Source: Psilocybe cubensis
Taxonomy: Eukaryota
DNA: 64,000 nt
Direction: 5' to 3'
Assembly: GCA_017499595.2 (NCBI GenBank)
Contig: CM038999.1
Location: 1,302,001-1,366,000, forward strand
How positions within the stretch are numbered: the stretch's first letter is position 1; each line of letters opens with the position of its first letter. Below are positions 10,327 to 41,478 of the stretch, piece by piece. The position numbers and the translations under genes are program-made. The notes below the pieces were generated by a model, which was given only the letters and a program-made list of their open reading frames with translations, was not told where the DNA came from and made no database searches.

Positions 10327-10331
10327 GCAGG
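10327..10331 (+). repeat. Target-site duplication GCAGG (left copy; right copy at 11915-11919)
   Basis: GCAGG lies immediately before the TGT of the 5' LTR and immediately after the ACA of the 3' LTR. Confidence 0.95.
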
Positions 10332-10608
10332 TGTCAGGGTACGTATTGGTGCCACCCCTATCCGTTATCGTTATCTGTTACGGTCCCACGCTGTCATGCC
10401 TTGTTCTATCTTTGTGTTCGGTCCCACGTCTATCGTTCTCCTGTTTCATCTATTGATAGTTGTCATATGTCGAGTACTCTGGTCCGGGAAGTAGTTACTC
10501 CGGTCTCCATGTATATATAGGGTCCTGGGGTCAGTAGTCAGATCCCAGCTTCGATATCAACTTGGTCTTTGGGCATTCTTCTCTCTTGACTTAAGTCGAT
10601 TCCTAACA
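10332..10608 (+). repeat. 5' LTR (277 bp)
   Basis: TGTCAGG...CCTAACA imperfect terminal inverted repeat; 275/277 identical to 11638-11914. Confidence 0.97.
10512..10519 (+). promoter_or_regulatory. LTR TATA box (TATATATA); predicted transcription start near 10547
   Basis: The TATA begins 35 nt upstream of the 11-mer that is complementary to the PBS. Confidence 0.6.
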
Positions 10609-10610
10609 GC

Positions 10611-10621
10611 ATATCGAAGCT
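10611..10621 (+). promoter_or_regulatory. Primer-binding site, self-priming type (ATATCGAAGCT)
   Basis: Begins 2 nt after the 5' LTR and is the exact reverse complement of AGCTTCGATAT at 10547-10557. It does not start with the TGG expected for priming by a tRNA 3' CCA end. Confidence 0.8.
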
Positions 10622-10699
10622 ACCCAACGTTGCCCTGGTACTCTATCCACTGCAGCGCTCGTCTACTCTACTCTACCTTGCCCCCACCTACTATACTCT

Positions 10700-11596
10700 A
10701 TGGCCGACCCTCCTTCGCCTTACGATGGGTTCATGACAATGTCCCTTGAGGACCGTTTCGCCCTCCTCTTTAGGGCGCAGCAAGTCCGGTTCGACGCCGA
10801 TAAAAAGGTTGACGACCGACTGTCTGCCATCGAGTCTAAACTCGAACGCCTCACGGCCTCTCTACCCAAACCGCCTGCCGCTCCCACTCCCTCTGCTCGC
10901 GCACCTCGCGCTCGACGCACCTCTAGGAAGGAACGCCCGGCTGCACCTACCTCTACCCCTACTACAGGGCCCCCGCACTCCCAATCCATCCGCTCCACTA
11001 CTACCAAAGCCGCCCTCAAGAAGATCGTCGCTACCCTGTCTATTGCGGACGAACAGGCTGGCCACGTCATAGGGCGCGCGGGAACTGGCTTACGCCAAAT
11101 CCACGACATCTCGCATGCAAAGATCTCGGTCTCCCCCGTCGTCACCTCCGGTTTGCGTGCCGTCACTATCAGGGGCACCGCTCGTGAAGTCGGTGATGCT
11201 CTCTCTGCTATCGGCAAGCGGATTGCCCGTCGTCGCATCCGCAACCCTAGGTCCAAGAAGCCTAAACAGCCTCCTGCGCCCACTGCTGCCCCTCCTACCC
11301 TCGTCGTTGAACCTCCTTCTCCTACTCCAACCTCGAGCTCTACCCCAACTACGCGGACACCCCGTTCCGGGACGGCTTCTCCGCACTCGCCCACTCCTAC
11401 GGCTGTTGACACTCGCTCCAGCCCATCCTCGTCGCTCGCCCCTGGTTTGCCTATGGAGGTGGACGCTCTCAGGGCTCCGCAGCAACACTCTGACGGTTAC
11501 TCTCGCCCCGGGCCTGTTCAGCCTAGGGAGGGAATTCAGACCGCGCGTCGTGGCGGTGGACCGCCTCGTGTCTTTGGTGCAAACCGTCCACGGTGA
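10700..11596 (+). CDS. Element-encoded 298-aa protein: N-terminal coiled coil, type I KH RNA-binding domain, basic NLS-like patch, Pro/Ser/Thr-rich tail with PMEVD and RGG-like motifs
   Basis: Intact intronless ATG-TGA ORF filling the internal region. KH signature LSIADEQAGHVIGRAGTGLRQIHDISHAKISV...RAVTIRGTAREVGDALSAI (aa ~110-175) with an intact GxxG loop (GRAG). Confidence 0.85.
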   Translation: MADPPSPYDGFMTMSLEDRFALLFRAQQVRFDADKKVDDRLSAIESKLERLTASLPKPPAAPTPSARAPRARRTSRKERPAAPTSTPTTGPPHSQSIRSTTTKAALKKIVATLSIADEQAGHVIGRAGTGLRQIHDISHAKISVSPVVTSGLRAVTIRGTAREVGDALSAIGKRIARRRIRNPRSKKPKQPPAPTAAPPTLVVEPPSPTPTSSSTPTTRTPRSGTASPHSPTPTAVDTRSSPSSSLAPGLPMEVDALRAPQQHSDGYSRPGPVQPREGIQTARRGGGPPRVFGANRPR

Positions 11597-11624
11597 AGAC
11601 CAGGTCGTTGGGACACCGACCTTT

Positions 11625-11637
11625 AGAGGGGAGGTGA
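11625..11637 (+). promoter_or_regulatory. Polypurine tract (AGAGGGGAGGTGA)
   Basis: Purine-rich tract abutting the 3' LTR; it fixes the element's orientation as +. Confidence 0.85.
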
Positions 11638-11914
11638 TGTCAGGGTACGTATTGGTGCCACCCCTATCTGTTATCGTTATCTGTTACGGTCCCACGCTGT
11701 CATGCCTTGTTCTATCTTTGTGTTCGGTCCCACGTCTATCGTTCTCCTGTTTCATCTATTGATAGTTGTCATATGTTGAGTACTCTGGTCCGGGAAGTAG
11801 TTACTCCGGTCTCCATGTATATATAGGGTCCTGGGGTCAGTAGTCAGATCCCAGCTTCGATATCAACTTGGTCTTTGGGCATTCTTCTCTCTTGACTTAA
11901 GTCGATTCCTAACA
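11638..11914 (+). repeat. 3' LTR (277 bp)
   Basis: Direct repeat of 10332-10608 with two C/T differences (11669, 11777). Confidence 0.97.
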
Positions 11915-13823
11915 GCAGGCATCAAGAGTGGCGCGAATATACATACATAGTGCATACATTTTTGAAAGAGAAAGTATCCCAAATTTGGTGCAGAAAATCA
12001 GCACCTACGACTTCAAGAGCACAAGGTTTATGTTGCACAATTTTCTCCAATATTTTGAGATCTTTCCACTTGAACGCCCGTTTGAGCAGCAGTATGGTTT
12101 GCTGTTTACTAAAAGGTCGCTGATCATTGACTAAAATATCAACCCAGCGGAGATCTTCTATGGTCGGTGTGATAGATGGTGATTCCATTAACTTGCGCAG
12201 TCCATAAGATGGACCTCCTGCCTTATACAGCACACTTTCCACTTTGTCCTGTTTAATAAAAACAAGGACGGTACGCCGATAGTCTAAAATGATTGAGCCA
12301 ATGTCGGCGCACATTTTAAAGATATCGAGAACTTACAATATTCCATCTGAAAGAAAAATTGGTATTTGCAGATAAATCAAATCAAAAGACGCTCACAGTT
12401 TCTGCCGAACTATCATAGTTGTTCTCATCAGGTGCTATATTCTCAAATGATTTCTTTGGAATAACAAAATCATCGCCGAGATTGACAGTTCCAATGGAAA
12501 GCAAAGGCACACCATCTAAGCTGACGACTTCAGTGAGCCTAGTGGTGGTGCCGGATACTGCACCCATTGTCACATCATCATCTCCGTCCTCGTCCTCGTC
12601 GTCTTCGTCTTTGTCTTCATAGCCGTAAAAATCAAAATCATAAAACCGCTGCCGCTGCCGCTTCCTTCGATAGTAGTCACAACCACCATAAATACGTTCA
12701 GCCGTGCCGGATTTTGTGTGATTCAACTTCGCCAGAATCAGCTTAAAACCCATTTCCTCTGCAACAGGGAGAATTTGAGTAGCTTTACTGCGATCCACTC
12801 CACGGAGTGAATCCATGCCCCGCTTAAGGGTTTCCATGTCGTATTGATGGTGAAGAATGCAGGCCATCATATCGTTGTCTGAGCCTTCCTGATATTTCTT
12901 GTCTTTCCAGTTCTAAATAACTTGGCAAAGAAGCATCATCGGTGACATTGAAGGTAGGATGGGATACGGTAATCCAGAAGATTGATCATGTATGAGGCTG
13001 TAAGAGAGGGCCAAGCGATATCCAGAAGTCAATGGTTTGATTGCATGCTTGACGTCAGTGTACCAGGCAACAAGGGTAGTGGATTGCAGGGAGTCTCGAG
13101 AAAGATCAACGGATTTGGTGATGGTCATATGGGAGAAAACAACCTCTCCTCCACTGTGGAAAGAAGGGAGGAGAATGGTTGCAGATGCAAACGCCCCGAT
13201 TACTCTTTGGGTACTAGCAAGAAAAAAAAAAACAAATTAACCAATCAGCTTTGGTGGAGATGAAAATGAACCCTTACTCCTGACCGGGCGTAAAACATGC
13301 CGTCCTGTTGATTTGATGGGTTTTCAGCAGCATTTCAACGAAACTTGTCGATAGACATACGTGGATCCACTGTCAAATAACAACAATTTTTGTAGTTCCA
13401 TCTTAGGAGGATGAGCTCCTATCTTTACGCCTAAGGACTTGCAGACCTCTCGAGACAGCGTGTTGTCAACGTAATTTTTCCAACCAGTGTTACCGAAGGA
13501 TACCAGACGCGAATCAATTTCCCATGTATCTCGTACAGCTTGAGGAGCGACATTGCGCTTTCCTTTCCCTGATAATGCTGGTGCAGAGCAATTAGCGATA
13601 ATGGCTCCGGCATCACGGTTGGTTAAGGGTAAACCAACAAGTCCAAGTCCAGAAATAGACATGCAAGGGTTTAAAGCGTTAGCCAGAGTAGAGGCATGAT
13701 AAAAATTGCCTTCAAAAGCCGTGTTAGCCTCATTAGTGGCCTTCCAAAGCTCGTCCTGAAATTAAGAGATATGGAAAACCAATGAAAACCGTGACGTTCA
13801 CAAAAGAAAGCGAGACAGACCCG

Positions 13824-39669: not shown

Positions 39670-41478
39670 CTAGATATCAAACCGTCGAATAACGAGCTTC
39701 CCTTTATGCGCGGTAACAATTCGTCTATCATCAAATGACACTGTTCCTTTGGTCAGTGGCAGCATAAGTTGCGCCGCTGCCTCATCAGCTCCAGCAACCT
39801 CAGCGCCAGTCCCTGCTTCGAGATCCCAAACCCAGATGCTTCCATTCTGCCCAAGACTGACGCAACGCCCATCTGAAAGAGCAAGTGATGACACGGGGCT
39901 GGTTTGACCGTGCAATGTGCGAACGAAATTTAATTTCGGTGGAGATGCTGCAATGGAGTTGGACTGAATTGGAAGGACTAGTCTGTAAAGTTGTAGACTC
40001 GTTGGAGAATGTAGCGCTGACGCAGAAGAAGCTGACGATGAAGAATCTAATGAAGAGTGGAAAGATGGAATGCGTTGATGTCCATAAATGGGATAGACGC
40101 TTGTCCCCGGGGCAAGGACAACCCATTTCCCATCCGTTTGAGCATCTGCAACATTGAGCAACTTGCGCCCCCACTGTTCCCTCATTGCACGAAGTGTACT
40201 ATCATTAACCCAACTCGATGGCATATCAAAAGCGCGGATCGTTCGACTTGTTATCACAGACATGGTCGAGGTCAAGGGATATTTATAATCTTCACGAAAT
40301 GAAGGCGAAGAGAATACTGTCGGAGTTGTCCTACCGCTGGCGGAAGCAGTTTCCGAGTGGTTAGATATGATGAGTTCCGTTGCACCGACAGACCAGTGCC
40401 TTGGATAGACAGGAACTGAATAGGTAATGACAAGTTTAAAGTTTCCTGGAGATGGCGAAGATAGGACAAGGGATACAGGTGGATAAGATGTGAAAGTGCT
40501 GAGAGTCTGTGTGTGGCGAACCACTCCAGATGATAGATCATAGATAGAGAGTGAAAAGATGGTAGATACCGTGACAAGAAGCGGGTGATAGTATGCGGCC
40601 TGCATGATGTTCATTGTCCTCGCTGTTCTTCGAGCAGGTTGGTACACGAACTTCTTCGAAACGGTATGAGAAGGTGACGACGGGTTGAAATCGAACACAG
40701 TGAATTCGCCAGTGGAAACGAAACACGCAAGTGATAGATGTCCAGTTGTAGGAGGAGATTGATCTAGAGCTAGTGCGGTGATACAAACTGGTAAGCGGTG
40801 GGAGTCTTGCTGATCATAGTAGGGAATAACATAGCGAGAAGTGGTCTGGCTGCTAAGGATCACCGAAGGATGTGATGTTGGCTCTGATGATGCAAAAATA
40901 ATCATAGTTCCTGCTAAAATAATATGCGTCTGTTCGTGAGTCCCCTCTGGATAAATTTTTGGAGGATCGTTTGGATGCTCAGACACATTTGTGGATGACT
41001 TCTCCACGAGGCAACGTCCTGTTGGATTCCATAGTCAGATACAACAGAAGATCCAATTAATAAAGTGAAATAACGCCAACACACCGTTTCTCCAGTTCGA
41101 ACTTATACGAAACATCCATTTCCAATCTCTATTCTGATTGGGATCTACGACAGCTCGACCAGGAAGTGGTTTCACATCTCGACCATCTAAGCGGCCTATG
41201 AAACCTCTTGCGCCTCTTAGACGAGTTCTACCATAGACTTTAAGATACTGCTCTCTCCAGAGTTCATTGTCCGCGGCAAGCCGAGCCCAGTTCTTGCTTG
41301 TCGACTGAGTTACACAAAGATCCACCCAAGTCAGATGCGAGAATATGCACAATATAAGTTCGTCGTATAATGAATTCTCGAAGCTGAGAACATTTCCAGG
41401 ATGATGCTTTGTCTTCCCTGATGTATGAACGCGTTTTGCAGGTGGCAGATGTGCAGGAGACAAGCTGCGTTTCGTCAT
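39670..41478 (-). CDS. F-box protein with C-terminal WD40-like beta-propeller
   Basis: F-box SLYDELILCIFSHL...VTQSTSKNWARLAADNELWR; C-terminal TLHGQTSPVSSLALSDGRCVSLGQNGSIWVWDL; 2 exons. Confidence 0.85.

Follow-up and report, generated by a model that had tools for sequence, protein, structure and literature searches.

The 64,000-nt stretch of the Psilocybe cubensis genome analysed here (the window; contig CM038999.1 of assembly GCA_017499595.2, positions 1,302,001 to 1,366,000, forward strand) carries a mobile element at 10332-11914, a 1583-bp long terminal repeat (LTR) retrotransposon with an internal region of 1029 bp. Two 11-nt segments near its 5' end are exactly complementary, one at the predicted start of the transcript and the other at the primer-binding site (PBS), 2 nt past the 5' LTR. 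Comparison with related elements suggests, with a probability that we put at about 0.8, that these segments (10547-10557 and 10611-10621) together form a Tf1-type self-priming signal in a non-autonomous LTR retrotransposon. The features of the element are as follows.

10327..10331, no strand: target-site duplication GCAGG, left copy; recurs at the right flank, and the empty-site joint shares 5 nt
10332..10608, + strand: 5' LTR, 277 bp, TG...CA; direct repeat with 2 differences from the 3' LTR
10512..10519, + strand: TATA box TATATATA; first base 35 nt before the 5' arm
10547..10557, + strand: predicted transcript start, whose first 11 nt, AGCTTCGATAT, form the putative self-primer (5' arm); exact complement of 10611-10621
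10558..10608, + strand: remainder of R/U5, which the primer-PBS duplex would loop out; includes the motif CAACTTGG..TTTGGGCA, which is conserved, and ends in the invariant ACA
10609..10610, + strand: spacer GC between LTR end and PBS; predicted to be copied into cDNA, then removed from its end
10611..10621, + strand: primer-binding site ATATCGAAGCT (3' arm); exact complement of the 5' arm, with which it covaries in relatives
10700..11596, + strand: sole long open reading frame (ORF), 298 aa, encoding a KH_1 protein according to Pfam, homologues and an AlphaFold (AF2) model
11625..11637, + strand: polypurine tract (PPT) AGAGGGGAGGTGA, abutting the 3' LTR; read from the sequence
11638..11914, + strand: 3' LTR, 277 bp, direct repeat; the 11-mer recurs in it at 11853-11863
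11915..11919, no strand: target-site duplication GCAGG, right copy; matches the left copy and the empty-site joint

A repeat finder placed the direct repeat at 10332-10611 and 11638-11917, and its final 3 nt overlap the target duplication by chance. Since the borders are set by the empty-site joint and the 5-bp GCAGG target-site duplication (TSD), the LTRs are 10332-10608 and 11638-11914. The empty site comes from sequencing run X9 (coded organism C), in which a contig joins 10326 to 11915, skipping 1588 nt and sharing 5 nt; this record is 440 nt long, with 372 nt to the left of the joint, 68 nt to the right and nothing between. Because X9 has the empty site, the insertion is not fixed among relatives. 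The two LTRs of the window copy differ at 2 of 277 positions (10385 and 10472).

No gag, protease, reverse transcriptase (RT) or integrase was found in the element by Pfam, its only long ORF encoding the KH-domain protein, and the element is therefore non-autonomous. The other marks of a non-autonomous LTR retrotransposon are present as well: an LTR pair, a TSD, a PBS, a PPT, no pol, multiple copies and an empty site. As for membership of the Tf1/sushi group of Ty3/gypsy elements as judged by pol, no RT, RNase H or integrase of that clade is encoded; the element is not a Tf1/sushi chromovirus, and at most a dependant of one.

Raw genomic reads of run X14 cover the flanks at ~30x and the internal region at ~300-480x (mean ~390x), a depth relative to the flanks that corresponds to ~13 internal copies at >=85% identity. 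The two LTR positions together reach ~1380x, which is ~47x the flank depth and more than twice the internal depth. As this exceeds two LTRs per internal copy, it points to solo LTRs or to LTRs of other elements. Between-copy differences in X14 are mostly C>T and G>A (128 and 84 of 249 places), an excess that suggests cytosine deamination, either methylation-linked or like repeat-induced point mutation (RIP), acting on the family. Both window LTRs carry T at the equivalent positions 10543 and 11849, where reads of other copies have C (889/908 and 293/323); this shared private T is as expected if one template gave both LTRs at insertion.

The KH ORF has 38 homologues at E <= 1e-3. They include several proteins from Psilocybe cubensis (to 98% identity) and others from Agrocybe pediades (75%), Psilocybe cf. 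subviscida (55%), Dendrothele bispora (47%) and also from a Termitomyces (45% over part), and many lie on 1-2-kb metagenome contigs. Thirty homologous proteins were aligned (A2), and the alignment was used to fetch 31 metagenome loci (L001 to L031). Many of the contigs, among them those of L001, L003, L004, L009, L013 and L015 over their whole length, show circular permutation; their ends overlap by 63-127 nt and the unit measures 1254-1613 bp. Other contigs contain LTR pairs, so the same small LTR-flanked unit recurs throughout. L012 and L018 look like internal-LTR-internal arrays; the permuted contigs and arrays could reflect LTR collapse in assembly, tandem arrays or one-LTR circles. Polypurine-like tracts precede the 3' LTR in L002, L003, L007 and L017 also. 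Among the 31 metagenome contigs there is none with a terminal poly(A) or with its start at the predicted +1. No RNA run was among the sequencing runs listed as containing the element, and two sequencing runs guessed to be RNA contained next to none of the element's words, which says nothing about expression.

Pairing between the 5' arm and the primer-binding site

The initial annotation, made from the window sequence alone, had proposed that the PBS is the exact complement of the element's own predicted 5' end. Both 11-mers were read at 10547-10557 and 10611-10621, and they are exact reverse complements. The pairing is exactly 11 nt long, as the neighbouring bases do not extend it (C10546/A10622 and C10558/C10610). 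The placement of the PBS 2 nt past the LTR was also confirmed, with the LTR end at 10608 fixed by the empty site and TSD, as was the distance of 35 nt from the start of the TATATATA box to the 5' arm. In the 64-kb window, the exact 11-mer occurs only at these two sites and at its 3' LTR copy. The reverse complement of an 11-mer starting 0-3 nt after the LTR occurred in 62 of 200,000 LTR shuffles (~3 in 10,000), and the analytic expectation for this 11-mer is 6.7e-5. With a looser rule (10 nt, CA within 3 nt upstream), two other matches are found in the window. The PBS of the window copy does not start with TGG, the nearest TGG lying 28 nt downstream, so the 3'-CCA end of a tRNA would not pair there. 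A single-sequence minimum free energy fold also pairs the two 11-mers, in line with the folding check suggested by the initial annotation, though the folding energy of the 5' region is modest (z = -1.2 for 94 nt and -2.0 for 174 nt). For this reason the case rests on comparison and not on energy.

The sequence ahead of each ORF, 450 nt or as much as there was, was scanned for perfect inverted repeats. Such a repeat was present in the window and in 20 loci, in the same layout but with differing sequences, the 5' arm lying ~150 nt and the 3' arm ~100 nt before the ATG. Four further loci conform on direct reading: L010, L003 (missed by the first scan because its 177-nt loop was beyond the initial limit), and L014 and L002, both on permuted contigs. 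Seven loci were left out of the count, namely L007 (without the 5'-arm region), L016, L026, L027 and L029 (without LTR or PBS), and L006 and L011 (5' part lost). All 25 testable copies (the window and 24 loci) show perfect pairing of 9-13 nt at the same place, and the complementarity has thus been kept in copies other than the one in which it was first noticed. There are 18 distinct primer sequences among the 25 copies, each matched by its own PBS. The 5' arms (primers) are:

window: AGCTTCGATAT
L001: ACCTTGATAT
L002: ACCTTTGAATTT
L003: ATCTTTGCAATA
L004: AGACTTGATAT
L005: ACCTTAGAATTA
L008, L013: ACCTTTGAATTA
L009: ATCTTGATAT
L010: AGCTTTGATAT
L012: AGCTTTGAAA
L014, L019, L023, L024: AGCTTTGAAAT
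L015: AACTTGATTAT
L017, L021: ACTCTATTAT
L018: ACTCGTTTAT
L020, L028: AGCTTGATTAT
L022: AGCTTTGAA
L025: ACTCTGTTAT
L030, L031: AACTCGATTAT

Eighteen primer states require at least 17 primer changes, all of them mirrored in the PBS.

We used a MAFFT alignment of 23 copies (A3) for controls; L002 and L014, which were recognised later, are outside it. The 10-mer located 2 nt after the ACA has its complement in the LTR piece of its own copy in 21 of 23 cases, the misses (L012 and L022) being off by one; the aligned pieces were cut around the arms, so this score is not blind, and the cross-locus and shuffle controls use identical pieces. When this 10-mer was tested against the pieces of relatives whose PBS differs, no complement was seen (0 of 478 ordered pairs), and shuffled pieces gave 7 in 46,000 trials. 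The 23 aligned copies contain 15 different PBS 10-mers.

Base changes in the alignment show the same pairing. Across the helix (columns 15-25 and 218-228), 89.2% of cells are paired compared to 70.6% in shuffles, and changes on both sides are seen in 8 of 11 helix pairs. Doubly changed cells number 51, compared to 16.2 in shuffles; none of 500 shuffles reached the observed value for either measure. When the partner is slid by 1-3 columns, only 28-48% of cells are paired. Cells left unpaired in the true register are due to one-column alignment misregister, as each copy pairs perfectly on its own. This helix was also the unguided RNAalifold prediction, both for A3 and for a second alignment spanning the predicted +1 through 70 nt beyond the PBS. 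The compensatory changes between 5' arm and PBS for which the initial annotation had suggested looking are therefore present in the family.

The sequence around the helix has a constant order: TATA box, 32-36 nt, 5' arm, U5, invariant ACA, a spacer of 0-2 nt, PBS. Every one of the 23 aligned copies has a TATA box whose start lies 32-36 nt ahead of the arm's first A (for L003, L015 and L030 the distance was read by eye, the script having chosen an earlier TATA), and CCCC directly precedes the arm in 16 of 23. In most copies this A is also where pairing starts; only L004, L008 and L010 extend it upstream by another 1-2 nt. A 5' helix edge at the A following the C-run is as expected if this A is the first base of the RNA. 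The arm is followed by a conserved C(A/G)A(C/T)TTGG...TGGG and then by a length-variable U5 (loop of 32-177 nt) that ends in ...CT(T/A)ACA, with the LTR-terminal ACA invariant in the 23 aligned copies. The 3' arm starts 0-3 nt after the last CA of the LTR in all 25 testable copies, and 2 nt after it in 21 of the 23 aligned. In most copies the spacer is 2 nt (GA, GC, TC or GT). In L002, L003, L005, L008 and L013, the two bases after ACA instead pair with primer bases 11-12 and covary with them (TA/TA versus AA/TT), giving a duplex of 12 bp that is flush with the LTR.

Additional structure in U5 and the leader is less clear. Weak closure of the U5 loop is seen in two places: pairing is possible between the C that follows the arm and the G that follows ACA (CG:13, AU:3), and also between GG (10564-10565) and CC (10602-10603), where the second pair covaries (GC:16, AU:7 in A3). 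The initial annotation had also described a U5 palindrome, GACTTAAGTC (10588-10597), and two possible U5-leader pairings, GGGCA (10571-10575) with TGCCC (10631-10635) and CAACTTGG (10558-10565) with CCAACGTTG (10624-10632). All three can be read in the window. However, the palindrome is missing from most relatives, many of which are without that part of U5, and neither pairing shows covariation or conservation in relatives. In the two pairings, 44.1% and 53.3% of cells are paired compared to 44.5% and 54.6% in shuffles, and slid registers are no worse. We rejected the palindrome and the pairings as family features, a rejection that is weak because the leader aligns poorly. Thus, with respect to the proposed tRNA-independent self-priming, pairing of the element's own 5' end with its PBS is strongly supported (25 of 25 copies, 18 primers) while the extra U5 and leader structures are not.

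Probable self-priming and alternative explanations

In the retrotransposon Tf1, the RNA's initial 11 bases anneal to the PBS, RNase H cleaves between bases 11 and 12, and RNA structures bring the two pairing regions together, according to excerpts of PMC7175516. Tj1 of S. japonicus is given as a self-primed Ty3/gypsy retrotransposon in part of PMC4600332. Self-priming has also been proposed from sequence for the fungal elements Tcn1 (Cryptococcus, a basidiomycete), Maggy, Skippy, Cft-1, Boty, Grasshopper and Afut1 (excerpts of PMC7175516, PMC6934838 and PMC6317226).

By the same scheme, RNA polymerase II would start ~35 nt after the LTR TATA box at A10547, a start predicted from the TATA distance and the helix edge. 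The first 11 nt of the RNA would fold back on the PBS, looping out 53 nt of U5, and the RNase H of a trans-supplied reverse transcriptase would cut after nucleotide 11 (U11). The freed 3'-OH could then prime minus-strand DNA synthesis via C10610 and G10609 into U5 and R, with the polypurine tract at 11625-11637 priming the plus strand. Integrase would trim the 2 extra nucleotides beyond CA and insert the DNA with a 5-bp duplication. If the plus strand copies a retained primer, changes in the 5' 11-mer would reappear in the progeny's PBS, and such copying would explain perfect pairing in every copy despite rapid sequence drift. The self primer of Tf1 is reportedly not removed, to go by the title of Atwood-Moore et al. 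2006. The location of the PBS at the LTR border fits priming, because a minus-strand primer must end where the LTR ends.

Chance can be set aside as an explanation of the 11-nt match. Short inverted repeats are common, and the looser rule does find two others in the window, but the shuffles of the window LTR and, above all, the same layout with compensatory changes in 25 of 25 testable copies stand against a chance inverted repeat; the family comparison rules it out. The PBS might instead bind a cellular primer (the 3' end of a tRNA, an internal fragment of one, or some other small RNA), with the LTR match being secondary. TTCGAT within the 11-mer presumably resembles a tRNA T-loop. However, a conserved tRNA would keep the PBS constant, whereas the 15 PBS 10-mers of the 23 aligned copies each match their own LTR only, and among all family copies no PBS starts with TGG. 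These comparisons make a tRNA or other conserved cellular primer very unlikely.

A helix that is real but serves another role (packaging, dimerisation, translation control or RNA stability), with priming by something else, is harder to dismiss, since covariation proves pairing and not priming. We nevertheless consider it improbable. The 3' arm lies exactly where a primer must end in all 25 testable copies, no alternative PBS adjoins the LTR, and the helix begins, on its 5' side, where the RNA is predicted to start. Furthermore, the geometry (10-12 nt including the first base of the RNA) matches that of Tf1 as given in excerpts of PMC7175516.

Self-priming from the element's own 5' end is therefore the reading that we favour, and several observations weigh against it. 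The RNA 5' end, the RNase H cut, the copying of the primer and the helper are parts of the scheme that we infer. The folding energies are modest, as described above, and the own-locus match score is not blind. The weakest copies are L012, with a 10-nt pairing, and L022, with a 9-nt pairing and one A missing from the LTR arm; in both, the pairing starts 3 nt rather than 2 nt after ACA and the ORF is broken. No variant inside either 11-mer was seen among the 40 of 295 between-copy variants listed, an incomplete within-species check. ARAGORN found no tRNA gene in the window, to which the search for tRNAs was limited, and this leaves some room for a cellular primer. Finally, no autonomous partner sharing the LTR or PBS features of the element was found in the window, the 31 loci or viral contigs.

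The putative helper

The initial annotation had inferred a Tf1/sushi-group (chromovirus-type) helper as the source of the RT. This is our best guess also, and we consider it fairly probable. Excerpts of PMC3248453 describe most fungal Ty3/gypsy elements as chromoviruses, and the fungal GalEa copia elements are reported without such complementarity in the parts of PMC5445492 consulted. The alternative is that the element is self-primed with the aid of another Ty3/gypsy lineage or a self-priming Ty1/copia-type element. We regard this as the less likely option, and several observations keep it in consideration. Self-priming has been predicted from sequence in a large survey for the plant TAR elements (Ty1/copia) and for the Tcn1 clade (excerpts of PMC6317226), and since it is predicted for TAR too, the signal alone does not name a Tf1/sushi helper. 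Fragments of copia gag adjoin the related loci L019 and L028. That no LTR-sharing partner was found, as noted above, leaves room for a helper of another kind. The 5-bp TSD and TG..CA ends are not known to separate the Ty3/gypsy and Ty1/copia superfamilies.

Other searches for a partner gave little. A degenerate form of the U5 motif had two matches in viral contigs, both due to chance and located in phage-like coding sequence. No other module with an inverted repeat next to CA that is then followed by gag-pol was found in the loci and the window. L017 contains a degenerate chromovirus integrase at 624-1928 (a frameshifted core, then SH3_Tf2-1 and Chromo), 400 nt upstream of its KH element, and integrase-like sequence also follows the 3' LTR of that element. 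We considered the L017 chromo-integrase as an LTR-sharing partner and rejected it, as the shared-looking LTR lacks a preceding PPT and a TSD is absent; the locus is a region of nested transposable elements. Pfam found no retroelement domain in the 13 other larger ORFs scanned in the window. An ORF at 39670-41034 (- strand) has a weak match to the beta-propeller of the F-box protein pof12 (PF25499, E 2e-8), and the other 12 had no Pfam match at E <= 0.001.

The KH protein and the place of the family

The 298-aa ORF matches Pfam KH_1 with an E-value of 7.5e-9. The family alignment shows a conserved N-terminal segment, the KH domain, a basic ARRR..KKKK stretch, a P/S/T-rich tail and a C-terminal QTARRGGGPP motif. 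In the AlphaFold model (mean predicted local distance difference test score, pLDDT, 64.9), a helix at residues 16-53 and a type I KH fold at 109-180 are confident, and the remainder is disordered. No capsid-like domain is present in this model, and the protein is not a Gag by predicted fold or by Pfam. In the PDB, the closest sequences belong to the KH domains of PCBP1/2 and hnRNP K (E 1e-6 to 1e-5). Among the 40 of 295 between-copy variants listed, 14 of the 19 within the ORF are synonymous, compared to ~33% for random transitions (binomial p = 4e-4). From these sequences, the KH ORF appears to be maintained by purifying selection, and it has travelled across divergent hosts together with the self-priming LTRs. 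No longer or fused relative of the KH protein was found, which is weak evidence.

One tentative proposal, which we hold to be possible though short of probable, is that this is an old family of 1.3-1.9 kb, spread throughout the Agaricomycetes, in which gag-pol was replaced by the element's own conserved protein, made up of a coiled helix, a single PCBP/hnRNP-K-like KH domain and a basic tail. The protein would act on the element's behalf, for example by attaching to the C-rich leader and directing the RNA to the particles and RT/RNase H of a chromovirus helper. If this is true, the element is a parasite that brings its own RNA-handling adaptor and not a passive passenger.

LARD and TR-GAG elements are pol-less, non-autonomous, helper-dependent LTR elements. 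Like them and like TRIM elements, which are defined in PMC6934838 (seen in excerpt), the element has LTRs, a PBS, a PPT, a TSD and multiple helper-dependent copies but no pol. The PBS of TRIM is complementary to a tRNA, whereas that of the element is complementary to the element's own 5' LTR sequence. TRIM and LARD have no conserved ORF and TR-GAG has gag, whereas the family described here has a conserved protein with a coiled helix and a KH domain. In Tf1/Tf2 of Schizosaccharomyces pombe and in Tj1, as predicted for the element, a PBS next to the 5' LTR pairs with the first ~11 nt of the element's own RNA, according to the excerpts cited above. Unlike them, the element is without gag or pol, is 1.6 kb long, encodes a KH protein and has an agaricomycete host. 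Compared to Tf1, the primer apparently has 10-12 nt across the element's family, and cleavage and priming are here predicted from sequence. Other fungal elements of the Tf1/sushi group are said, in the same excerpts, to have a PBS that pairs with the LTR-derived 5' end, inferred from sequence; they are autonomous, with gag-pol and usually a chromodomain integrase, and are set apart from the element by description only. For plant TAR and Tcn1-clade elements, likened here by description, self-priming is predicted as it is for the element, but they are autonomous and have other hosts.

Self-priming itself is a known mechanism, and the less expected part is the pol-less, KH-encoding family that carries it. 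The titles and abstracts of the literature searched contained nothing relevant on KH-encoding or non-autonomous self-priming LTR elements, and on that basis the family appears to be undescribed. In the portions of the literature consulted, self-priming is demonstrated only for Tf1, and elsewhere it is inferred from single sequences. The family described here amounts to a natural experiment, in which 25 copies carry 18 primers that are mirrored in the PBS and lie at a fixed distance from the TATA box and the LTR end. It gives strong comparative support for self-priming operating in basidiomycetes, limits the primer to 10-12 nt and displays two geometries, one with a 2-nt spacer and one with a 12-bp duplex abutting the LTR. 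Furthermore, the signal would be usable by an element without a reverse transcriptase of its own, which narrows the search for the helper and raises the question of what role the KH protein may play.

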